DNA of 64,000 nucleotides from Candidatus Woesearchaeota archaeon (GCA_964559675.1 CAZLHJ010000001.1:56285-120284); one strand, 5' to 3'. Counted from the stretch's first letter, positions 6,389-15,814 are shown. The notes: generated by a model from the sequence alone, not told the origin. Numbers and translations are program-made.

Positions 6389-7354
6389 ATGAATTTTAAA
6401 AAATATTTTGATAGGGTGCAAAATTCCGGAACTGCCTTAGTTATCTTATTCATAGCATCACTCTTATTTTTTTATTTCATCTCAGATATAGTATTCACAA
6501 TTCTAGGTGGAATCATAATCGCCATAATTCTTTCTACACTAATATCTTTCACTTCCAGAAAAACTAATCTCTCGTGGATGTTTAGTTTTATAATCGTATT
6601 GTTTATAGTCCTCATAGTTTTAGGTTCCATTTCATATTATTTATCTTCAACAATAATTTCACAATCCACTCAGCTTTTCAGCGAAATCTCTTCCCAAGCA
6701 ACAAATCTATTATCAGAAATAGAAACTAGGTTCGGAATATCTATCTCTAATTTAGATTTCTTCAATCTTATTAGGGACGTATTATCCAACAATCTTATCT
6801 TTTCAGTTCTTACTTATCTTTCATTATTTCTTATTGCAATTTTCTTAGGGATTTATTTCTCATACTCTCCCAATGATTACTTCAACGATTTCAATAAGAA
6901 TGGAAAAATGAAATCTGCGCTTCTAAGGTCCAGAAAGGAATTAAAGAATTGGGTTATCGGCACATTATACTCTATGATTATAATTGGAACAGTTACAACT
7001 ATCGCATTATTAATCTTAGATGTAAGATACGCTATAGTTTTAGGATTATTAGCGGGCCTCCTCGAATTTATCCCATATGTAGGTCCAATCATCTCATGGG
7101 TTCCAGCTTTTATTATAACTGTAGTTCAAGACCCAATTTTAGGAGCTTACATAACTATCTTATATATTGGAATTCAACAACTTGAAAGTCATCTAGTGGT
7201 TCCAATTGTTCAAAAAAGAATGGTTTATCTCGAACCAGGCTACATCTTAATTGCAGAATTGTTCTTCGGACTCATATTCGGATTCTTTGGATTATTATTC
7301 GCAGTTCCGACAGTAGTTGTCTTAAGGGCAATATATCAAGAGCTCAGAAAATAA
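6389..7354 (+). CDS. AI-2E family transporter (PerM/UPF0118)
   Basis: Eight-TM topology and the characteristic C-terminal IPYVGPIISWVPAFIITVVQDP motif. Confidence 0.7.
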   Translation: MNFKKYFDRVQNSGTALVILFIASLLFFYFISDIVFTILGGIIIAIILSTLISFTSRKTNLSWMFSFIIVLFIVLIVLGSISYYLSSTIISQSTQLFSEISSQATNLLSEIETRFGISISNLDFFNLIRDVLSNNLIFSVLTYLSLFLIAIFLGIYFSYSPNDYFNDFNKNGKMKSALLRSRKELKNWVIGTLYSMIIIGTVTTIALLILDVRYAIVLGLLAGLLEFIPYVGPIISWVPAFIITVVQDPILGAYITILYIGIQQLESHLVVPIVQKRMVYLEPGYILIAELFFGLIFGFFGLLFAVPTVVVLRAIYQELRK

Positions 7355-7402: not shown

Positions 7403-7798
7403 ATGCAAAAAGAGGAACCAGAGCCCAGAAACTATGACTCGACCCAAAATTTTGCAGACGCTTTTAGATCTATTTGGACAGGAATAAAAACAACTACTAT
7501 TTATGCAACAATTAGTTTAGGATTATTAGCTGGAGGAGGTTATATCGGTAATAAAATAATTAATCATTATTCTGATAAAATTACACAAGAAATAAAAGCA
7601 GAAACTGAATCTTTAGACTCGTCTCGTCAAAATATCTACAGATTACAAGATTCTTTGGAATCTCAAGAAAATAAAAACAAGAAGCTATTAGAACAATCTT
7701 CTTCAAACCTCCAAGGTTTAGAATTATTAGTAAAAGATCTCAACAATAAATTGGGACATACAAATGATTTAATTGCAAATAATTCAGAGAAAAATTAA
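7403..7798 (+). CDS. hypothetical membrane-anchored coiled-coil protein
   Basis: One TM helix followed by Gln/Ser/Leu-rich heptad-like sequence. Confidence 0.4.
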   Translation: MQKEEPEPRNYDSTQNFADAFRSIWTGIKTTTIYATISLGLLAGGGYIGNKIINHYSDKITQEIKAETESLDSSRQNIYRLQDSLESQENKNKKLLEQSSSNLQGLELLVKDLNNKLGHTNDLIANNSEKN

Positions 7799-9372
7799 TA
7801 TCTTTTAACTCTACCGTATCTATCTCTTCCGCTTGATCGTCCTCTATCTCCTCTGTCTCGACTTCCAGATCCTTCTCCATCTCTAGATCTTGAACCAAAA
7901 CTTCTTCCGGATGGTCTTCCTCCACCAAATGATCTTCCACCACTAGGTCTTCCACCGAATGATCTGCCTCCAGATCTATTTCCAAAACTTCTTCCAGGCG
8001 GCCTTCCACCAGATGATCCACTACTTCCTTCTCCATCTCTAGATCTTGAACCAAAACTTCTTCCTGATGGTCTTCCTCCACCAAATGATCTTCCACTTCC
8101 TTCTCTTCTATCTGAGAAACTCCTCTCTCTTCCACCGAAACTTCTTCCAGCACCTCTGTCACCTCTTCTTCCGTCTCTTTGCCCATCACGACCTCCTCCA
8201 AATCGTCTATTTCCTCCTCTAGAACCTCTATCATTATTGAACATCTTAAAATTGACATCTAATGTCTCTAATTCTGGAAGTTCAACATTCTGTATATTTA
8301 ATGAAGAATCTTGTTTAACACTTCTGAAATTTTCATAATCTCTTGGAGAAACTAAATTAACTGCAATACCTTCTTTTCCAGCTCTTGCTGTTCTTCCAAT
8401 TCTATGTACGTATTCAGTACTATTTTTCGGAATATCATAATTATAAACGTGTGAAATTCCTTTAATATCTAATCCTCTGGCGGCAACATCTGTACATACT
8501 AATGTTAGAACTTCTTGTGAATGGAATGATTTGATTATATCATTTCTTTTATTCTGCGTTAATCCTCCATGAATTGCCATAGAATGAATTTCATATCTCA
8601 TTAAGTTTCTAACTACCATATCAGTATTTCTTCTTGTGTTACAAAATACCATTACTAATCCCTTTCTTTCCTGCTTTAATAAATGAACAAGTAATGAGAA
8701 TTTCTTATCTTGAGGAACATCATAATAGACTTGTTTCAATTTTGAAGGATCTACATATGATTCAACTTCAACTAAAACTGGGGCCTTCATATATTTTCTA
8801 GAAATTCTTTGGATATCTTGAGACATTGTTGCTGAAAACAATAAGGTCTGTCTTTCTTCAGGACACATCTTAATTATATTTTCAACATCTTTAATGAATC
8901 CCATTTCAAGCATTCTGTCTGCCTCATCTAAAACTAGGTATTTCACTTTCTCTAAATTTAATGTTCTTCTATCTAAATGATCTAAAATTCTTCCAGGAGT
9001 TCCGACAACAATCTCTGCTCTTGCTAAAGCATCAATCTGCGGACCAATAGCAACTCCACCATAAACTTCCTTAACTCTTAATGAATGGTGCCTTGAAAAG
9101 TTTCTAAGACTCTGAGCAACCTGCTCTGCTAATTCTCTTGTAGGTGTTAAGATTAAAGCTTGAATTCCAGCTCCTCTTTTAACGTTATCAATTATTCCAG
9201 CTCCGAATGCTAATGTCTTTCCAGATCCGGTTGAAGAACTACCTAAAACGTCTTTCCCTTGTAATACTAAAGGAATTGTTTTTTCTTGAATCTCACTAGG
9301 CGTTTCGAATTTTGCTTCTTCAATGGCCTTTAAGAGATTTTCACTTAATTTTAATTCTCTAAATTTTTCCAT
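7795..9372 (-). CDS. DEAD-box ATP-dependent RNA helicase with about 170-aa C-terminal RGG/GRSFGG repeat tail
   Basis: Motifs GSGKT, PTRELA, DEAD (VLDEADRMLEMGF), SAT, HRIGRTARAG. The C-terminus is made of repeated GRSFGG/RDGEGS units. Confidence 0.9.
   Translation of the reverse strand: MEKFRELKLSENLLKAIEEAKFETPSEIQEKTIPLVLQGKDVLGSSSTGSGKTLAFGAGIIDNVKRGAGIQALILTPTRELAEQVAQSLRNFSRHHSLRVKEVYGGVAIGPQIDALARAEIVVGTPGRILDHLDRRTLNLEKVKYLVLDEADRMLEMGFIKDVENIIKMCPEERQTLLFSATMSQDIQRISRKYMKAPVLVEVESYVDPSKLKQVYYDVPQDKKFSLLVHLLKQERKGLVMVFCNTRRNTDMVVRNLMRYEIHSMAIHGGLTQNKRNDIIKSFHSQEVLTLVCTDVAARGLDIKGISHVYNYDIPKNSTEYVHRIGRTARAGKEGIAVNLVSPRDYENFRSVKQDSSLNIQNVELPELETLDVNFKMFNNDRGSRGGNRRFGGGRDGQRDGRRGDRGAGRSFGGRERSFSDRREGSGRSFGGGRPSGRSFGSRSRDGEGSSGSSGGRPPGRSFGNRSGGRSFGGRPSGGRSFGGGRPSGRSFGSRSRDGEGSGSRDRGDRGRSSGRDRYGRVKRY
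7873..8096. repeat. about 68-bp near-perfect direct repeat (two copies 156 bp apart) inside the helicase RGG-tail coding region
   Basis: cttctccatctctagatcttgaaccaaaacttcttcc(g/t)gatggtcttcctccaccaaatgatcttccac at 7873..7940 and 8029..8096. Confidence 0.8.
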
Positions 9373-9503: not shown

Positions 9504-9899
9504 CTAATCAGCTTTGAAGAATTCTATCGGGACAGACTCTCTTTGTAATTTATAGCCTTCAATAATTCTATTCAGTCTAGATATTCTCTCACTTTCTGTT
9601 TCCGCGTCTTCAAAAATTAATTTATTCAGCGCGCCTTCTCCTGCAAATTGGTGAGAATAATCTCTAGCCGTCCAAATTCTTCCAATTTCAATCATTCCAT
9701 TTCTACAATCATAAATTGGAATGACTCCATTAAAAACAATTTTTCTCTCTCCATCCATATCAACTAGAGATTTAATCGCCTCTGCATGAAATATATGTCC
9801 TCCAACCCATTCCTCCAAAATCTCTCTTTTTCCAATTACTCCTCTAATTGGTAAATCTCTTGGTAATTCCAAATCTCTTAAATAAATAGATCCACTCAT
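9504..9899 (-). CDS. hypothetical protein
   Basis: 131-aa ORF immediately downstream of the ADP-ribosylglycohydrolase gene; no recognisable motif. Confidence 0.4.
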   Translation of the reverse strand: MSGSIYLRDLELPRDLPIRGVIGKREILEEWVGGHIFHAEAIKSLVDMDGERKIVFNGVIPIYDCRNGMIEIGRIWTARDYSHQFAGEGALNKLIFEDAETESERISRLNRIIEGYKLQRESVPIEFFKAD

Positions 9900-9939
9900 A
9901 GTTTTACCTCAAAAAGAGTCTTTTTAAAACTATCCCGAA

Positions 9940-11001
9940 TTAATTTAAATCGTAAATTCTATCTGCTAAATTAACTATCTTCATCTTATCTTTTAAATCA
10001 TCTAACCAACTTTCTCTGAAGAACATCCCATGTCTTGCTCCAGCCAACGCTCCAAATATTGCTCCAGTAGTATCGCAATCTCCTCCATAATTAACTGTTT
10101 CAAGCAATCCTTTCTGAGGCTCATCCCAAAACTTCTGAAACATAAATAAAGCAAAAGGATAAGATTTGTAAACAAGACTAGAATTCCCTAATTCATTAAA
10201 TGCCTCTTCACAGCTTTTATCTTTATTATCTGAAATCCATCTAATTCTTTGAGCCATATCTATTTGAGGATCTTTTCCAGCTTTTGGTTTCCAATTTTCT
10301 TCCCAAATTTTTGAAACACAGAAAATATCTTCCAAAAATTCTTCCTTATTTGCTCCGTTAAGTAATCTATAAATTGCGCTAGCTTGTATCACTCCACTTA
10401 CAACTGATCTAGGATCCAAATGAGTTATCTTTCCAACTAATCCTGCTTGCTCTAATCCTCCCATATAGTTTTGAGTTGCGTGCATGAACATTCCAAGCGG
10501 ATGCATTTTCATAGCAGGACCATTTCCAGCTCCAAATAAAACTCCAGAAGTATAAGGGATCCCCTCTTTTCTAAAATTTTCAAATGCTTTAATAGTTGAA
10601 CCTCCAAACCCTCCAAAAACGCTCCCATCCGGTCTTAATCTCTCTTCATATTCAGCAACTTGTCTTCTTGCAATATCCCATAAATCAAATTCTTTCTTAT
10701 CAGCTAAAGATTCTGCAAGCGCAAGAGTAAGGATAGTGTCATCTGTAAATTCCCCTTTCTTAAAATCTTTAGTCCAATATTTTAATTTTCCATATTCGTC
10801 TTCAGTTATTAAATTACCTTCAGAATCTCTTAAAACTACTGGATCAATTGGAGTTTCAATTCTCCCAGCGTATTTCAGAATTTGTTCTCTCTTCCAACCC
10901 TCAACAGGCATTCCAAGAGTATCTCCAACCGCACACCCTAAAAGAACTGCCCTATATTTATCTCTAGTCATATTAGAAAACAGGCCAAACCCATCTATCA
11001 A
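9940..11001 (-). CDS. ADP-ribosylglycohydrolase (DraG/ARH family)
   Basis: LGCAVGDTLGMPVEG near the N-terminus and GGDCDTTGAIFGALAGARHG near the C-terminus, the two metal-binding signature blocks of the family. Confidence 0.85.
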   Translation of the reverse strand: MIDGFGLFSNMTRDKYRAVLLGCAVGDTLGMPVEGWKREQILKYAGRIETPIDPVVLRDSEGNLITEDEYGKLKYWTKDFKKGEFTDDTILTLALAESLADKKEFDLWDIARRQVAEYEERLRPDGSVFGGFGGSTIKAFENFRKEGIPYTSGVLFGAGNGPAMKMHPLGMFMHATQNYMGGLEQAGLVGKITHLDPRSVVSGVIQASAIYRLLNGANKEEFLEDIFCVSKIWEENWKPKAGKDPQIDMAQRIRWISDNKDKSCEEAFNELGNSSLVYKSYPFALFMFQKFWDEPQKGLLETVNYGGDCDTTGAIFGALAGARHGMFFRESWLDDLKDKMKIVNLADRIYDLN

Positions 11002-11467
11002 AAAATCCAGAATTATCTTCTAAACAATCCCAAAGGTTTTTTGTCGGCACTCTCTCAAAATCTAAACTTCCGTCTGTTTTTTTATAACCTAATTGATCTG
11101 TAATTACAGCGTCAATTTGTACATGGTCAAAATCTGGATTTCTTTCCCTTACGTCTTGCCTTATATGATTTAGTAAATCGTTTCTCAAATCATCTCCCTG
11201 CCAGGTAACTTTATTATATGCAGTTCTAAGAAAATCTACCGGACCATAATTATAATTTGATACTGCCAAGGTGATTCCAATGGCTCCCATTATCAAACAC
11301 CCCTTATTACCCACACATCCTGAAGAATCATTTCCTCTTGAAGGTCTACCAGTTTCGCCTTGTATAGTGTAACGACCACCATCGCCATCTCTTTCTAAAA
11401 CTGCTTGAGTTCCACTAGAATAATCTCTCGGCCCCTTTACTCTTTTTACATCTACTCTCTCAACCAT
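10973..11467 (-). CDS. hypothetical protein translationally overlapped with the ARH gene
   Basis: 164-aa ORF overlapping the ARH start by 29 bp; no recognisable domain. Confidence 0.45.
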   Translation of the reverse strand: MVERVDVKRVKGPRDYSSGTQAVLERDGDGGRYTIQGETGRPSRGNDSSGCVGNKGCLIMGAIGITLAVSNYNYGPVDFLRTAYNKVTWQGDDLRNDLLNHIRQDVRERNPDFDHVQIDAVITDQLGYKKTDGSLDFERVPTKNLWDCLEDNSGFFDRWVWPVF

Positions 11468-11501
11468 AAAAAATCAATTAAAACTCTGTTTTTAAATTTT
11501 G

Positions 11502-12161
11502 TTATAAAATTTCAACTATCTCATTAACCTTTGTTTTCAATGAATATAATTTAGGGGGCCTATATGAAACTCCTTCTAAAACGTCTTCTTCTTTTAAGAT
11601 ATTTAGCGAATGAATCTTCTTTGCAAAATTTCTCTTATCAAACTTTTTTTTAAAGACGATTTCATAAATTTTTTGAAGTTGAGCAATTGTAAATTTCTTA
11701 GGTAATAATGAAAATGCAACTGTAGTGTATTCAAATTTCCACCTTAGTCTCTTTATTGCATACTCTAAAATTTCTTTATGATCGAAAGAAAGTTTTGGGA
11801 GTTTAGAAACACTAAACCATTCTGCCTCTGAAACGTCAGTTGAAGCACTAAGCTTTATTTTTTCAGAATTTATAAGTGCAATATAAGAAACAGTTATAAC
11901 TCTCCCTCTTGGATCTCTTTTAGGATTTCCAAATGTATAAAGTTGCTCAAGATAAACGTCCTTTACCCCCGTCTCTTCCTCTAATTCTCTTTTTGCAGAC
12001 TCTTCCAAGGATTCGTCCATCTTGATGAATCCCCCAGGTATTGCCCACATTCCCTTAAACGGTTCGACGTCTCTTTTAACCAGAAGAGCTTTCAATTCTT
12101 CTTGATGAATGGTAAAGATGACTGTGTCAACAGTTACAGAAGGTTTAACATATTCTGCCAT
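11502..12161 (-). CDS. NUDIX hydrolase (ADP-ribose pyrophosphatase-like) with C-terminal extension
   Basis: Nudix box GGFIKMDESLEESAKRELEEETGV. Confidence 0.85.
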   Translation of the reverse strand: MAEYVKPSVTVDTVIFTIHQEELKALLVKRDVEPFKGMWAIPGGFIKMDESLEESAKRELEEETGVKDVYLEQLYTFGNPKRDPRGRVITVSYIALINSEKIKLSASTDVSEAEWFSVSKLPKLSFDHKEILEYAIKRLRWKFEYTTVAFSLLPKKFTIAQLQKIYEIVFKKKFDKRNFAKKIHSLNILKEEDVLEGVSYRPPKLYSLKTKVNEIVEIL

Positions 12162-12162
12162 A

Positions 12163-12177
12163 GTGTATAAAATACAA
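12163..12177. promoter_or_regulatory. start-adjacent motif AGTGTATAAAATACA (shared with 13789..13805)
   Basis: Lies 1 nt upstream of the NUDIX start codon. Same 15-mer as the palindrome before the radical-SAM gene. Confidence 0.4.
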
Positions 12178-12184
12178 GAATCTA

Positions 12185-12673
12185 TTAAAACTTTTCTTTT
12201 ATAACATTAAAGACTTCTTCAGGTACGAGGAGTTTTACCTCTTCAAATTTTCTTTCACGAATTAATTTTTTTATATCTGTACCAGAAATCTGATTGTATC
12301 TTTTAAACTTTCTAATTTTTACATTTACTTTTCTCCAAGGAACATTATAATCTACCCCAGAGTAGATATTTGTTGGAAGTTCACCAACTAATGATAAAAC
12401 ACAGCTGGATAAAACCACATCCCACTGAGCTTCTTTAGAATGAGGGGAATCTAAATCAATATTTGCACCGATAAAAAGTTTCTTATTAGAACAAAAAATT
12501 TTCTTAATCATTTCTTTTCTCTCAAGTAAAGAAAATGGGTTTTTTTCATCTTTTTTATCGATTGAACCAATGAGGACTACTCCGACATCGCATTCCTCAA
12601 GCATTTTATCAACTAGGAATTTATGTCCATTATGAAATGGTTGAAATCTTCCATGAACTAATCCAATTTTCAT
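12185..12673 (-). CDS. nicotinamide-nucleotide adenylyltransferase (archaeal NMNAT-like cytidylyltransferase fold)
   Basis: MKIGLVHGRFQPFHNGHKFLV (the HxGH motif) in a small 162-aa protein, typical of archaeal NMNAT. Confidence 0.75.
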   Translation of the reverse strand: MKIGLVHGRFQPFHNGHKFLVDKMLEECDVGVVLIGSIDKKDEKNPFSLLERKEMIKKIFCSNKKLFIGANIDLDSPHSKEAQWDVVLSSCVLSLVGELPTNIYSGVDYNVPWRKVNVKIRKFKRYNQISGTDIKKLIRERKFEEVKLLVPEEVFNVIKEKF

Positions 12674-12721
12674 TTTAAATAAAAATAAAAGAACTTTAAA
12701 TACTTATACAGTTTAACAAAA

Positions 12722-13783
12722 TTACCTATTTATTCCTTCAATTTTGATTATGCTCTCCATCGTTTTTAAGGTACTTCCTCCCAAAACTGCATTCCCGCAA
12801 GTTACCAAACCGTCTTCTTCATCAATTGATGGAACGAAGACTAAGACATCAAATCCTTCTCTCTTTAAATCTTCTTCAGGTTTTTGGTAGGGTTTCCAAG
12901 AATTATATCCTCCAAGAGTTACAATTCCATTTTCACGACAAGCATTATTATTGTGAATAGGGGTTATTTTAGCCATAAATTTATCTCTGTCGAATAAAGC
13001 CGCAATTTTCTTAGCATCAATTTCAAAATTAGTAGAGTATGCAAAATTTAAGCAATATTTCCGACTAACAGGAGGAGGTAATTTTCTAGCAATCCTTGCA
13101 AAATCTTCAAGATGTAATTGTTGATTTCCAAACATCTCTGTCCTTTGATCTTCATCTGTCGAATTTATACTAAATTGCAGACCAGCTTGCCCATTATAAA
13201 CTTCGTTTTTAATTCTACACCATTCCAGGATTCTATCTTCCAATATTCTAAATTTTCTTGGTAATGAGGTGGTTAAAACAGGATGTAAAACTTCAATTCT
13301 CAATCCAGTATCTTCTTGAACTTTTCTTTTATTTAATTGAAGCCATTCCGAAAATGCAAATACATTTTCATTAAAAATTGGATCACCCATTCTTGCATAA
13401 TGTAAGTTTAGTCTTTCTGTATATTTAATTTCTGGAAATAATTCTAGCGCATTGTAAAGTTGATGTTGCAAATCCTCAAATGTTGCATTTCCTCTAAATT
13501 TTACATTAGGTACATCACAAAAGGAACACTTCATAGGACAGCCATATTGTGTACTTACAGTTACAACCCATTTCTCACTTAAGGGCATACAATTAGTATT
13601 TGGTACTCCTTCTATCTGTTTTGTGTACCCCAAAAAGTCTGCCTTCACATTCTTAGATTTCCCATAGTCTCCAATAGATAATGTTTCAAGTTCTCCTTTT
13701 GAATAATTACCTACAAAAAGGTATCCTGTAGGAATAGGATATCTTCTCGTTATTGTATTTGGGGTATAATGATTTATTTTCAT
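12722..13783 (-). CDS. radical SAM enzyme, RlmN/Cfr-like
   Basis: VSTQYGCPMKCSFCDV, a CxxxCxxC motif with the RlmN-like preceding STQ.GC; C-terminal conserved Cys in GLVTCGNAV. Confidence 0.55.
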   Translation of the reverse strand: MKINHYTPNTITRRYPIPTGYLFVGNYSKGELETLSIGDYGKSKNVKADFLGYTKQIEGVPNTNCMPLSEKWVVTVSTQYGCPMKCSFCDVPNVKFRGNATFEDLQHQLYNALELFPEIKYTERLNLHYARMGDPIFNENVFAFSEWLQLNKRKVQEDTGLRIEVLHPVLTTSLPRKFRILEDRILEWCRIKNEVYNGQAGLQFSINSTDEDQRTEMFGNQQLHLEDFARIARKLPPPVSRKYCLNFAYSTNFEIDAKKIAALFDRDKFMAKITPIHNNNACRENGIVTLGGYNSWKPYQKPEEDLKREGFDVLVFVPSIDEEDGLVTCGNAVLGGSTLKTMESIIKIEGINR

Positions 13784-13788
13784 ACCTT

Positions 13789-13805
13789 AGTGTATAAAAT
13801 ACACT
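13789..13805. promoter_or_regulatory. 17-bp perfect palindrome AGTGTAT-AAA-ATACACT, 5 nt upstream of the start codon
   Basis: Seen directly in the sequence. Its 15-mer recurs at 12163..12177. Confidence 0.45.
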
Positions 13806-13898
13806 ATATAAATCTTTCTATATCAAACAATACAAAAGAAAATCGCCAAATTTAAATAATCCTTAACCTTTCTAAAAACATCAAAAAGAGAGTGTGAG

Positions 13899-14190
13899 AT
13901 GAACGAAATTTTGTTAAATGAGGTTCTTATTCCTGCTGCAATCGGAGGAGTTGGAGGTCTAACAAGAGGAGTTGTTGGCTTATTGAAGGCGCTTTCTTTA
14001 AGGAGAAGAATTATTTGGGGCTATTATCTAATCACAGTTATTGTTGCAGCAATCATCGGAATTTTCATTGGAATAGTTTTCAATTTTGATTATCGTCTTG
14101 CTTTTACTTGCAGGTTACGCAGGCACAGATATTTTAGAAGGGATTTACAAATCTTTCAAAGTCGATAAAACATATGTTGTTAAAAAATGA
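13899..14190 (+). CDS. small membrane protein with apparent frameshift near 14079..14087
   Basis: Frame 1 gives MNEILLNEVLIPAAIGGVGG...IGIVFNF. The +1 frame continues as SILIIVLLLLAGYAGTDILEGIYKSFKVDKTYVVKK and ends in an ATGA overlap with the next gene. The listed ORF tail, DYRLAFTCRLRRHRYF, looks out of frame. Confidence 0.4.
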
Positions 14191-14411
14191 GCAAAAAGAA
14201 AATTTCAATCGAAGTAGATTCTGAAGAACTTTCTGTTTTAGAAAAACGTGCAAAGAAAAATTTCATGACAGTTCAAGAATTAATTGAGGATATAATAAGA
14301 AGAAGCTCAATTTCATATAAAAAAGGCACAACAACTCGAGAGATTAAAGTGGATGATCCAATAGTCGCAGTTTTCTCTCGCCAAAATTCCGGAAGAAAAA
14401 AGAAAAATTAG
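14187..14411 (+). CDS. ribbon-helix-helix (CopG/Arc-like) small DNA-binding protein
   Basis: KKISIEVDSEELSVLEKRAKKNFMTVQELIEDIIRR shows the beta-alpha-alpha RHH pattern. Basic C-terminal tail. Confidence 0.45.
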   Translation: MSKKKISIEVDSEELSVLEKRAKKNFMTVQELIEDIIRRSSISYKKGTTTREIKVDDPIVAVFSRQNSGRKKKN

Positions 14412-15814
14412 AATAATGTTCTAATCACATCAGAAGCCGTATTCTTTCCAGATCTGTGGTCACTAGGGGTTTTTGGAAATACGACAATATATTTTGGATC
14501 CGCTGTAATGGTCAATTTGTAATGGTTTCCATCTTCATCTATCTCAAATCCCATCTCATTCAACTCCTTTCTCATTCCAGCATTTAATCTATTATATCCA
14601 TTAAATAATCTTTTAACTCTCTCAACGATAGCATCTCTTTCATTTCCTAGAGGGTTAGCTTGAATCACTGCTTCTATAATATCGTGCCTTCTAGTTCTTA
14701 CAGGTACTCCATTTAAAGCATTCGCTAATTCTTGAATTACTACGGTTTTTGTTTCTTCATCATACGCTTGAGAGACTTGAGGGTCAACTAAAAAATTAGA
14801 CATATCTGAAACTATCGGTTTCTTTCTCAATTGCGATTGTAGTGCTATAACTGTATTTTCAAGACTTTGAATTTGAGAAGACTTATCTCCAAGTTCTTGG
14901 CTATAAAGCTCCAATAAGGTATTCGTATCTTGGCTATTCGATGTCCTAATTTGCTCAATTTGTTTTTGATTATTCAAGCTTTGAATGTTTTCCCAAGTAA
15001 GTGGTCTAGAAAGTCTTGTATATTGCAATGCTTTTACAATTATATCTAAAGTTTTCTGAATTATTTCCTTAGGTTCATGATTTGAATAATCTCTAGGTAA
15101 TAGGAAACTCCTTCCCAATCCTTCTGGCCAATATACACCTATAGCTCCTCCGAAAACATTAGCTCCTCTAGTCGCATCTCTTAGATTCAATGAGAATTTT
15201 TTATCAGGTTCAACGAATACATGAGATAATCCAGATAAAGCACTTGCTAGTCTATCGGGATTAACTAAATAAAATCCCCTAGGGTCTTTACTAACATAGA
15301 CTATTGGGAGTACATTTTCTCCATGTCCCAAAATTAAATCTGCAAATCTATTCTCTTGTCCAAAATCTAACAAATAAGGCCTATCTTTAACAAGAACTTC
15401 TCCATCCATCCCTCCTCCGAGTTCCTCAAGCAAAGTTTTAATTACATAAGGCTTTCTACTATGCGGAATAGAGGCTTTTCCAACTGCAGAATCATAATCT
15501 ACTGTAATCCCTACCCAAAATTTAGAATCATCTTTTGTTCCAACTACACGAGTATACCATGTATCTATCCCATGTTCTCCAGGATGAGTATATGCCAATC
15601 CCAATGTATTATAATCTTCCCCATTAACTCTTCCTAATTCTACTGTTTTGCCTTCAGATTTTATAATCTCTCCATGAAAGACAAGTTTGTCCAAATCTCC
15701 CCTTTTAAAAGAAGCGTGTGGGCTCCCAAGTATCCATTTCTTTCCCGCTTCAAGAAATTCATCCAATGTAGCAGATGAATCTACTGGAAATTGAGTTGAA
15801 AATAATCTCGCCAT
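14408..15814 (-). CDS. hypothetical 468-aa protein with central coiled coil
   Basis: No recognisable catalytic motif; central Q/S-rich coiled-coil segment. Convergent with, and overlapping, the RHH gene. Confidence 0.5.
   Translation of the reverse strand: MARLFSTQFPVDSSATLDEFLEAGKKWILGSPHASFKRGDLDKLVFHGEIIKSEGKTVELGRVNGEDYNTLGLAYTHPGEHGIDTWYTRVVGTKDDSKFWVGITVDYDSAVGKASIPHSRKPYVIKTLLEELGGGMDGEVLVKDRPYLLDFGQENRFADLILGHGENVLPIVYVSKDPRGFYLVNPDRLASALSGLSHVFVEPDKKFSLNLRDATRGANVFGGAIGVYWPEGLGRSFLLPRDYSNHEPKEIIQKTLDIIVKALQYTRLSRPLTWENIQSLNNQKQIEQIRTSNSQDTNTLLELYSQELGDKSSQIQSLENTVIALQSQLRKKPIVSDMSNFLVDPQVSQAYDEETKTVVIQELANALNGVPVRTRRHDIIEAVIQANPLGNERDAIVERVKRLFNGYNRLNAGMRKELNEMGFEIDEDGNHYKLTITADPKYIVVFPKTPSDHRSGKNTASDVIRTLF

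Follow-up and report, generated by a model that had tools for sequence, protein, structure and literature searches.

A probable NrtR regulon for self-regulated NAD/ADP-ribose recycling in a DPANN-type archaeon

A block of six genes in a 64,000-nt stretch of archaeal DNA (the whole stretch that was analysed, hereafter the window) raises the question of whether these genes form one system of NAD and ADP-ribose metabolism, and whether an ADP-ribosyltransferase is hidden among them. The original prediction had described a co-directional, tightly spaced block in which a radical SAM gene preceded genes for NAD synthesis, ADP-ribose hydrolysis and the removal of ADP-ribosylation, with two ORFs of no assigned function. 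Domain architectures, operator sites with their conservation, and gene neighbourhoods were computed for the block. All six ORFs were confirmed on the minus strand at the predicted coordinates, with intergenic gaps of 48, 23, 34, 1 and 40 nt in the order from the radical SAM gene (rSAM) to ORF131. The archaeal markers of the host were CDC48, an archaeal-type GluRS and an archaeal-type ThrRS. The block was most plausibly the NrtR regulon of a DPANN-type (Nanoarchaeota/Woesearchaeota-like) archaeon for self-regulated NAD/ADP-ribose recycling, and a probability of about 0.7 was assigned to this reading.

The regulator was encoded at 11502..12161 (minus strand, 219 aa) by the gene that had been labelled only as NUDIX. 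The label was right as far as it went, because the N-terminal Nudix domain was present (PF00293, E=3.8e-22; Pfam) and its box GX5EX7REUXEEXGU was intact (GFIKMDESLEESAKRELEEETGV, residues 44-66). However, the protein also carried a C-terminal NrtR winged-helix DNA-binding domain (PF21906, E=2.9e-20; Pfam), and it could be aligned over its full length with BtAraR (E=3.5e-44) and with Shewanella NrtR (E=1.9e-39); the PDB entries aligned were 5bs6 and 3gz5. Hence, it was assigned as a regulator, not just a hydrolase. The score against the NCBIfam equivalog NF050029 was 182.8 bits against a cut-off of 400, and the protein is a divergent NrtR member, not a curated equivalog. The Nudix box was intact in the archaeal NrtR orthologs (L004 and L010) and degenerate in those of CPR bacteria, and an intact box such as that of the window protein is the minority case within the NrtR family. 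According to published work, an intact box correlates with ADPR pyrophosphatase activity. In the literature, NrtR is treated as a family of bacteria, and no report of it in archaea was found; judging from these sequences, a regulator family known from bacteria appears to work in DPANN archaea.

Two sites that could be bound by this regulator were located in the block. Operator 1 (13788..13806, no strand assigned) was a perfect 19-bp palindrome, TAGTGTAT-TTT-ATACACTA, which ended 4 nt before the rSAM ATG. Operator 2 (12161..12179, no strand assigned), TCTTGTAT-TTT-ATACACTA, had two mismatches to operator 1 and a degenerate left half-site, and it ended on the A of the nrtR ATG. The consensus was T-AGTGT-N7-ACACT-A. 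This palindrome was found only twice in 64 kb, against 0.06 occurrences expected, and both copies were located directly before start codons inside the block. The published NrtR sites are 21-bp palindromes with the core GT-N7-AC (PMC2330246), and the operators of the window fitted that core. Each operator came after a putative TATA box, one set being located before rSAM-NMNAT and the other before nrtR-ORF164-ARH-ORF131. The candidate box of promoter 1 (TTTATATA, 13805..13812, minus strand) was preceded by a purine-rich BRE-like stretch, and the TATA-like box of promoter 2 (TTTTAATA, 12183..12190, minus strand) overlapped the NMNAT stop codon; both were read from the sequence, and their promoter role is a presumed one. 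From the position of operator 2 before nrtR, we infer that the gene is autoregulated and that its transcript is leaderless.

The arrangement was conserved in related loci. The TATA box and operator formed a conserved island upstream of both rSAM and nrtR in the archaeal L004 and L010, where the TATA box of promoter 1 occupied the same position and the sequence farther upstream diverged. The adjacency of NMNAT and NrtR also recurred in these two loci, as did the whole order rSAM-NMNAT-NrtR. The operator before rSAM orthologs was conserved in L004, L010, L009 and L014; in the last two, which are CPR bacteria, it overlapped a TATAAT -10 box instead of following a TATA box. The pair of regulator and operator would offer a clean natural case of transplantation between two transcription systems, with TATA in DPANN archaea and the -10 box in CPR. 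Furthermore, the same motif was located directly upstream of ARH orthologs in L042 (perfect) and L045 (one mismatch), before NMNAT-like and NadK-like genes in L027 and L038, and twice, both times perfect, before the NAPRTase gene in L026.

These targets bear on the ligand of the regulator. [quoted passage not shown] Such a match, together with the score below the equivalog cut-off, would fit a protein that senses a ligand other than ADP-ribose, in which case the block would not be ADP-ribose-regulated. This possibility was judged very unlikely, because all the operator-marked targets that were found were NAD-related (NMNAT, NAPRTase, PncA, NadK and ARH), with no sugar-utilisation gene among them, and because the intact Nudix box is typical of ADPR pyrophosphatases.

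The proposed NrtR regulon, with ADP-ribose as effector, agreed in several respects with the bacterial NrtR regulons, including those of the nadM/pncAB type (PMC2330246). Both have a regulator that combines Nudix and winged-helix domains, a palindromic operator with the GT-N7-AC core, an nrtR operon that appears autoregulated, and NMNAT and NAD salvage genes as targets. In Streptomyces, moreover, the nrtR-draG operon has been assigned to ADPR metabolism (#nrtR1-draG-SCO1765; Rodionov et al. 2008, PMC2330246), and the nrtR operon of the window likewise contains an ARH (draG-like) gene. The differences were the archaeal host, the operators placed just downstream of TATA with putatively leaderless or near-leaderless starts, whereas the bacterial operators overlap sigma-70 -10/-35 elements, and the presence of a radical SAM gene of an uncharacterised family together with two genes that are specific to the lineage and lack an assigned function.

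In the proposed mechanism, the block would be transcribed as two tandem units, one of rSAM-NMNAT and the other of nrtR-ORF164-ARH-ORF131. In both, the palindromic NrtR operator comes immediately after a putative TATA box, and next is the start codon, which would be leaderless or near-leaderless. Transcription would be blocked by an NrtR dimer bound at these operators, each of which separates its TATA box from the start site. When NAD is consumed, free ADP-ribose would build up, and ARH may supply part of it by acting on ADP-ribosylated proteins or on small molecules, for instance O-acetyl-ADP-ribose. Binding of ADP-ribose to the Nudix domain would release the repressor, and the cell would gain more NMNAT for renewed NAD synthesis, along with more rSAM enzyme, ARH and NrtR itself. 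Because its Nudix catalytic box is intact, NrtR is probably also a hydrolase that splits ADP-ribose into AMP and ribose-5-phosphate, and this cleavage would return the switch to its initial state. In this scheme, the nrtR-ARH unit would have acquired ORF164 and ORF131 as additions specific to the lineage.

The enzyme of NAD synthesis that the original prediction had named was recognised at 12185..12673 (minus strand, 162 aa) as an archaeal-type NMN adenylyltransferase-like protein. Its Pfam family was cytidylyltransferase-like, and archaeal NMNAT models were top-ranked in NCBIfam. Residues 4-160 aligned with residues 3-153 of the solved archaeal NMNAT of M. jannaschii, MJ0541 (E=1.5e-9), which amounts to a full-length match, and a motif of the HxGH type was present at residue 14 (HNGH) and one of the ISxT type at residue 129 (ISGT). 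The label NMNAT-like was retained because the scores were below the equivalog cut-offs (TIGR01527, 55.9 against 181 bits; PRK01153, 58.2 against 127 bits). The functional coupling of NMNAT and Nudix resembled that in the bifunctional NMNAT/ADPR pyrophosphatase NadM-Nudix, and in the L012 homolog the two were actually fused. Unlike NadM-Nudix, the block encodes them in separate genes, with a DNA-binding domain added to the Nudix protein.

The predicted ADP-ribosylglycohydrolase (ARH) was confirmed at 9940..10971 on the minus strand. It belonged to PF03747 (E=5e-60; 203.9 bits against a gathering cut-off of 26.2; Pfam), and its di-metal-binding Asp/Thr motifs GDTLG, TDDT and GGDCDTTG aligned with their counterparts in 2cwc and 1t5j. 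It was neither a DraG equivalog (80.8 bits against a cut-off of 337) nor Tri1 (73.9 bits against 490). In most ARH loci with usable flanks, the relatives of ARH were located near Nudix/NrtR/NMNAT/NadK-type genes, and operons of the order NadE-Nudix-NMNAT-...-ARH-NadK were observed, with NadB-like genes also among the members. The presence of ARH relatives within NAD operons, some of them directly behind an NrtR-type operator, supported the NAD/ADP-ribose theme that had been proposed for the block, and this theme was strengthened further by the block's own ADP-ribose-type regulator and its two matching operators. As a conserved member of NAD operons in reduced genomes, ARH would make the release of ADP-ribose a routine part of the NAD economy of salvage-dependent organisms.

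An operon of ARH could alternatively serve in conflict with viruses. A role in undoing viral ADP-ribosylation has been predicted for ARG-centric systems regulated by Nudix or WYL transcription factors (Iyer et al. 2022, PMC9503650, section 3.8); here, an ARH operon repressed by a Nudix-HTH protein and lacking a cognate ART would strip virus-placed ADP-ribose off host proteins, with ORF164 and ORF131 as fast-evolving accessory or chaperone-like components. The block matched this template in having ARH with a Nudix-HTH repressor, variable and poorly conserved accessory genes, and no linked ART or sirtuin, since no such domain was recorded within ~10 kb on either side. A HicA-like/RHH element was located just upstream of the block, and the low-confidence model of ORF131, a beta-meander with helices, was loosely chaperone-like. 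Nevertheless, a conflict system is rather unlikely. The orthologs of ARH were located in conserved housekeeping NAD operons (NadE, NMNAT, NadK, NadB-like) and not in variable defence islands, and the same operator preceded NMNAT and NAPRTase genes. The typical phosphatase, REase, Macro and NADAR partners were all absent; no recognisable phosphatase, chaperone or nuclease/REase partner was detected in the block by Pfam, recorded neighbour domains or PADLOC. ARH itself had no PADLOC match, and the published systems have been described in bacteria, unlike the archaeal host of this block.

The remaining role that had been suggested for ARH was that of an eraser paired with a writer, ORF164 being the candidate ADP-ribosyltransferase or dedicated substrate. 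ORF164 (10973..11467, minus strand) and ORF131 (9504..9899, minus strand, preceded at 6 nt by a Shine-Dalgarno-like GAGGT) looked like real genes. Host-like codon usage was present in frame 0 only, at 0.34 and 0.52 bits per codon for the two ORFs against 0.26-0.53 in bona fide neighbours, and the chance expectation was ~0.3 ORFs of at least 131 codons in the window. Neither ORF matched any Pfam, NCBIfam, PHROG or PADLOC family. ORF164, for which the original prediction had stated no known fold, had no Pfam match, and its family profile matched no solved-structure (PDB) sequence, but it was not without relatives, as an exhaustive HMMER scan gave 52 distant homologs. Behind a variable N-terminus and a hydrophobic anchor at residues ~56-72, the family shared a conserved domain of ~100 residues with the motif pattern GPxDxxRTxYN...LWDxxE...RWxWP, for which the single-sequence AlphaFold model of ORF164 predicted, at low confidence (pLDDT 36), an all-helical fold.

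If these genes were a toxin-immunity or writer/eraser pair, the modification reversed by ARH would be made by a novel ADP-ribosyltransferase, and ORF164 (or ORF131) would be either this enzyme or its dedicated target. The block resembles DraT/DraG and other ART-ARH writer/eraser or toxin-antitoxin pairs in having an ARH-family hydrolase with intact metal-binding motifs; unlike them, it has no ART gene that could be found, and the DraG score was far below its cut-off. The lack of a family assignment for both ORFs leaves room for a very divergent enzyme, and their structure models were too poor for the fold to be judged. The predicted 29-nt overlap of ORF164 with ARH was an artefact of a mechanical TTG start at 11001. 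The ARH ATG at 10971, from which the public gene call gives 343 aa, lies 1 nt past the ORF164 stop (TAA, 10975-10973). This spacing suggests co-translation or translational coupling, and a functional tie between ORF164 and ARH may therefore exist in this organism. Beyond it, the original prediction had named an ART fold and co-conservation with ARH as the marks of the writer role. The 47 members of the ORF164 family that were scanned matched no Pfam family, ART families included, and no R-S-E or H-Y-E pattern was present in the conserved domain. ARH was not located beside ORF164-family members in any of eight genomic contexts, nor was an ORF164-family gene (profile search) or an ORF131-like gene recorded at any of 22 loci of ARH relatives. 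The ~100-residue domain lies behind an anchor, no PADLOC defence-system match was obtained for the three proteins ORF164, ARH and ORF131, and ORF131 is shorter than typical ART domains. A writer/eraser pair is thus extremely unlikely. By its sequence, ORF164 would be a membrane-anchored protein of a small uncharacterised family, and it was not supported as a writer; ORF131 is an orphan, and neither of the two is co-conserved with ARH. The outcome was deflationary, with no hidden ADP-ribosyltransferase recognised and a self-regulated operon that is probably of a known bacterial type.

The most unusual part of the block, and its best lead, is the radical SAM protein (12722..13783, minus strand, 353 aa), which belongs to the uncharacterised, hyper-conserved family phrog_24834. 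Its description as RlmN/Cfr-like was borne out for the cluster motif CX3CX2C (CPMKCSFC, residues 82-89) and its flanks, the resemblance being limited to residues ~65-141 (~80 residues) around the Fe-S motif (PDB E~5e-4), and the overall size was similar to that of these class A methyltransferases. It failed at the family level: the scores were 27.5 against 290 bits for TIGR00048 and 21 against 530-550 bits for Cfr, and the resolving Cys of RlmN (C118) had no equivalent, since the aligned position was occupied by Thr75, which is invariant in the family. Five additional conserved Cys also set the family apart, and so did its genomic neighbours, which belonged to NAD salvage or to phages instead of to translation. 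The motif TCGN, with an invariant C-terminal Cys, may be reminiscent of RlmN ACGQ. The family was 70-85% identical across Archaea, CPR bacteria, Bacteroidota, Proteobacteria and Planctomycetota; it was common in phages and was also carried by prophages. In ultra-small-genome organisms, rSAM was under predicted NrtR control beside NMNAT, PncA/PncB and NadE. Tentatively, rSAM could act by itself as a new enzyme in the metabolism of NAD or ADP-ribose, although the odds are against it. Were it to make, modify or repair a nucleotide of the pyridine or adenine type, with radical C-methylation or an auxiliary Fe-S cluster as examples of the means, NAD salvage would gain a further step; phages could also use the enzyme against NAD-depleting defences. 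Hyper-conserved, phage-borne and NAD-linked, the family is a well-defined target that bears on work on NAD-centred conflicts between phages and hosts.

The six open reading frames of the block followed one another in tandem on the minus strand (9504–13783), in the 5'-to-3' order radical SAM protein (rSAM), NMNAT, nrtR, ORF164, ADP-ribosylglycohydrolase (ARH) and ORF131, where ORF164 and ORF131 denote the unknown proteins of 164 and 131 aa. A co-directional NAD/ADP-ribose gene block had been proposed in the original prediction, and it was confirmed by the presence of all six minus-strand frames and by the location of ARH orthologs in NAD operons. The observation is largely real and its NAD/ADP-ribose theme is right; three details were corrected, and the idea of a candidate writer gained no support. 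The block is most probably an NrtR regulon, a known kind of system, here in an archaeal host and with promoters laid out in the archaeal manner. Besides its conserved ARH, the regulon contains two unknown genes specific to the lineage and an rSAM that is uncharacterised, hyper-conserved and associated with phages. According to the codon statistics, ORF164 and ORF131 both behaved as genuine genes.

The regulator was encoded by the gene previously read as a NUDIX enzyme. The Nudix assignment of this 219-aa protein was retained, but it was not a plain hydrolase, because an NrtR-type winged-helix domain was also present (PF21906, E = 3e-20). The protein aligned over its whole length with solved NrtR-family regulators, and its Nudix box was intact, as in the archaeal orthologs but not in those of CPR bacteria. 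Operator 1 (13788–13806), directly upstream of the rSAM start, was a perfect 19-bp palindrome, TAGTGTAT-TTT-ATACACTA. Operator 2 (12161–12179) was a copy with two mismatches whose last position was the A of the nrtR ATG. The palindrome occurred twice in the 64 kb, both times before genes of the block, against an expectation of 0.06. NrtR sites are mostly 21-bp palindromes with the core GT-N7-AC (Rodionov et al., PMC2330246), and the sites in the window read AGTGT-N7-ACACT. The TATA-like octamers TTTATATA and TTTTAATA, together with a purine-rich stretch, preceded the two operators. From the sequence, we infer that the spacing between octamer and ATG roughly fits an archaeal promoter whose transcript is leaderless or nearly so.

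The TATA element and operator were conserved together, as an island, ahead of rSAM and nrtR orthologs in two MAGs, one from Nanoarchaeota (L004) and one from Woesearchaeota (L010). In CPR loci from WWE3 (L009; 4953–4969 and 6910–6926) and Harrisonbacteria (L014; 6197–6213 and approximately 6918–6934), the same palindrome overlapped a TATAAT −10 box, and a −35-like hexamer (TTGCAT/TTGCTT) was located 16–17 nt upstream of the −10 box/palindrome. A single regulator–operator pair seems to serve archaeal as well as bacterial transcription systems. The gene neighbourhood was explored by tblastn of the six block proteins against 13 loci carrying rSAM relatives. The order rSAM–NMNAT–NrtR was found in L004 and L010, rSAM–NMNAT in L006, NrtR–rSAM–NMNAT in L014 and NrtR–PncA–PncB–rSAM in L009. 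Moreover, the rSAM gene was followed at a distance by PncB–PncA and, further on, NadE–Nudix–NMNAT in L005, by a NadM–Nudix fusion in L012 and by an NMNAT-like gene in L011. ORF164, ARH and ORF131 were absent from all these loci in the tblastn comparison.

The G+C content stayed at 30–35% across the whole window and did not shift at the block; no tRNA or Rfam element was found in the window. A CDC48 ATPase, an archaeal-type glutamyl-tRNA synthetase and a threonyl-tRNA synthetase with archaeal matches were encoded elsewhere in the window; therefore, the host is an archaeon. The nearest relatives of the block genes were in Nanoarchaeota and Woesearchaeota MAGs. The identical region was present in contig DYHJ01000002.1 (MAG GCA_020724245.1) and in two sequencing runs, and the window and the MAG contig shared 99.95% identity and differed in a run of Ns alone. 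In the MAG contig (locus L001), the Ns formed a short run near position 9820 (window 11641–11644), at a poly-A tract within nrtR, and represent an assembly gap rather than a biological variant.

The 162-aa protein was a HIGH-type nucleotidyltransferase with HNGH and ISGT motifs, whose top matches were archaeal NMNATs and which aligned over its full length with MJ0541. It scored under the curated equivalog cut-offs and was therefore named NMNAT-like. The ARH annotation is secure (PF03747, E = 5e-60), and the metal-site motifs aligned with those of T. thermophilus ARH and M. jannaschii MJ1187. The enzyme was rejected as a DraG or Tri1 equivalog on its equivalog scores. The 29-nt overlap between ORF164 and ARH claimed earlier arose from a mechanical TTG start of ARH; the ATG at 10971 lies one base past the ORF164 stop codon, and the same start was used in the public gene call.

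Relatives of ARH were found in 22 metagenomic loci (47–62% identity). The loci with flanking genes shared a recurrent operon, NadE–Nudix–NMNAT-like–Ser/Thr kinase–two unknowns–pyruvate-kinase-barrel-like–ARH–NAD kinase, with an occasional DAO-type or NadB-like flavoprotein. An NrtR-type palindrome was located immediately 5' of ARH in two of the metagenomic loci (perfect in L042, one mismatch in L045) and 5' of NMNAT-like and NadK-like genes in two others (L027 and L038), and two perfect palindromes preceded the NAPRTase gene in L026. Since ARH occurred in NAD operons and with NrtR palindromes, it is part of the NAD/NrtR gene network of this lineage. In these operons (L026–L047; e.g., L033 40–8186 and L038 478–6920), a Ser/Thr protein kinase and two unknown families of about 300 aa accompany the NAD genes.

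ORF164 had been proposed as a candidate ADP-ribosyltransferase (ART) writer or as a substrate alongside ARH. A word-indexed homolog search with ORF164 or ORF131 returned the query alone. An exhaustive HMMER scan with ORF164 recovered 52 proteins of 74–192 aa and one 888-aa protein with multiple hits, matching residues of about 55–162. The family had a variable N-terminus, one hydrophobic segment (17 residues, mean Kyte-Doolittle 1.97) and a domain of about 100 residues, in which Asp78 and Glu150 were invariant and Gly75, Pro76, Arg81, Tyr84, Arg103, Asp147 and Trp161 nearly so. Neither individual members nor the family profile had a Pfam or PDB-sequence relative. The family was too divergent for pattern-based retrieval, and its contexts were obtained by exact-sequence look-up; eight were retrieved, of which the three largest (6–9 kb) were informative. 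The neighbours included translin, AbiEii, methionine aminopeptidase, Sec61-beta and an unrelated radical SAM gene. ARH was beside a family member in none of the eight contexts, and the family profile had no match in the 22 ARH loci. The single-sequence AlphaFold model of ORF164 consisted of helices alone and was unreliable (pLDDT 36), and no ART or sirtuin domain was recorded within about 10 kb on either side of the block. Hence, the proposed pairing failed the co-conservation test, and sequence and structure added no support. The 1-nt spacing suggests that ORF164 and ARH are co-translated, which leaves a writer or substrate tie a small probability in this one organism. ORF131 had no relative by word-indexed search of the 5.8-billion-protein index or in any of the retrieved loci, and its single-sequence model was likewise unreliable (pLDDT 34). 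Of the three informative ORF164-family contexts, two had a stand-alone Nudix gene no more than about 2.5 kb away (L019 2655–3095 and L023 2537–2938); in so small a sample, this may be due to chance. In L023, the family member was directly 3' of a different radical SAM gene.

In the proposed mechanism, NrtR would repress the two promoters by sitting on operators that separate the TATA box from the start site. This repression would be lifted by free ADP-ribose, known to act as the anti-repressor of characterised NrtRs (PMC2330246), induced NMNAT would rebuild NAD, and ARH would supply or clear ADP-ribose conjugates. The intact Nudix box, together with a correlation reported in PMC2330246, suggests that NrtR also degrades its own effector. 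The Streptomyces nrtR–draG operon is a published precedent for an ARH under NrtR control (PMC2330246). The leading alternative is the ARG-centric anti-viral system that Iyer et al. predicted (PMC9503650); it shares the core of ARH and Nudix-HTH with the block and likewise has no ART. However, none of its phosphatase, nuclease and chaperone partners was recognisable in the block, and the placement of ARH orthologs in conserved NAD operons also argues against it. A known PADLOC defence system was rejected as the identity of the block.

The rSAM is the most unexpected element of the block and the part most worth pursuing. It contained CX3CX2C at residues 82–89, and eight cysteines were conserved (the cluster triad, C65, C189, C244, C282 and C329). 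The earlier description as RlmN/Cfr-like held for the radical SAM assignment, but the likeness to RlmN/Cfr was limited to about 80 residues even by family profile. With this limited likeness and an invariant Thr at the position of RlmN Cys118, orthology with RlmN/Cfr was rejected. More than 3000 relatives shared 72–85% identity with the window protein (12722–13783, minus strand), and the family (loci L004–L016, L025 and L048–L050), 70–85% identical across Archaea, CPR and several bacterial phyla, spanned Nanoarchaeota, CPR phyla, Bacteroidia, Gammaproteobacteria, Pseudobdellovibrionaceae and Planctomycetota. It corresponded to phrog_24834, which has no assigned function; Bacteroides phage Versailles encoded a member (50% identity), and others were located in prophage-like regions of Capnocytophaga, a Kaiserbacteria MAG and one further genome. 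NAD salvage genes adjoined rSAM in 8 of roughly 13 informative contexts, and an NrtR operator preceded it in five genomes (the window, L004, L010, L009 and L014). No link of the family to NrtR or NAD was found in the literature, and the literature searched on NrtR together with radical SAM, on nrtX/nrtY, on NARP3 and on ARH in DPANN archaea gave nothing bearing on rSAM or an archaeal NrtR. We speculate that the enzyme could make, modify or repair a pyridine or adenine nucleotide.

On one side of the block, a DEAD-box helicase (7795–9372, minus strand) ended in a C-terminal tail of about 150 residues with many RGG/SFGG repeats, an uncommon feature in archaeal helicases. A 172-aa antisense shadow ORF (7740–8258) covered the repeat region; it is probably non-coding because the codon score was highest in another frame. 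On the other side, a 468-aa protein (14408–15814, minus strand) had a C-terminal HicA-like domain and weak PADLOC HEC-07 matches, and a 74-aa gene with a weak ribbon-helix-helix match (14187–14411, plus strand) converged on it with a 4-nt overlap. This pair (14187–15814) may be a toxin–antitoxin or defence element just upstream of the NrtR regulon.
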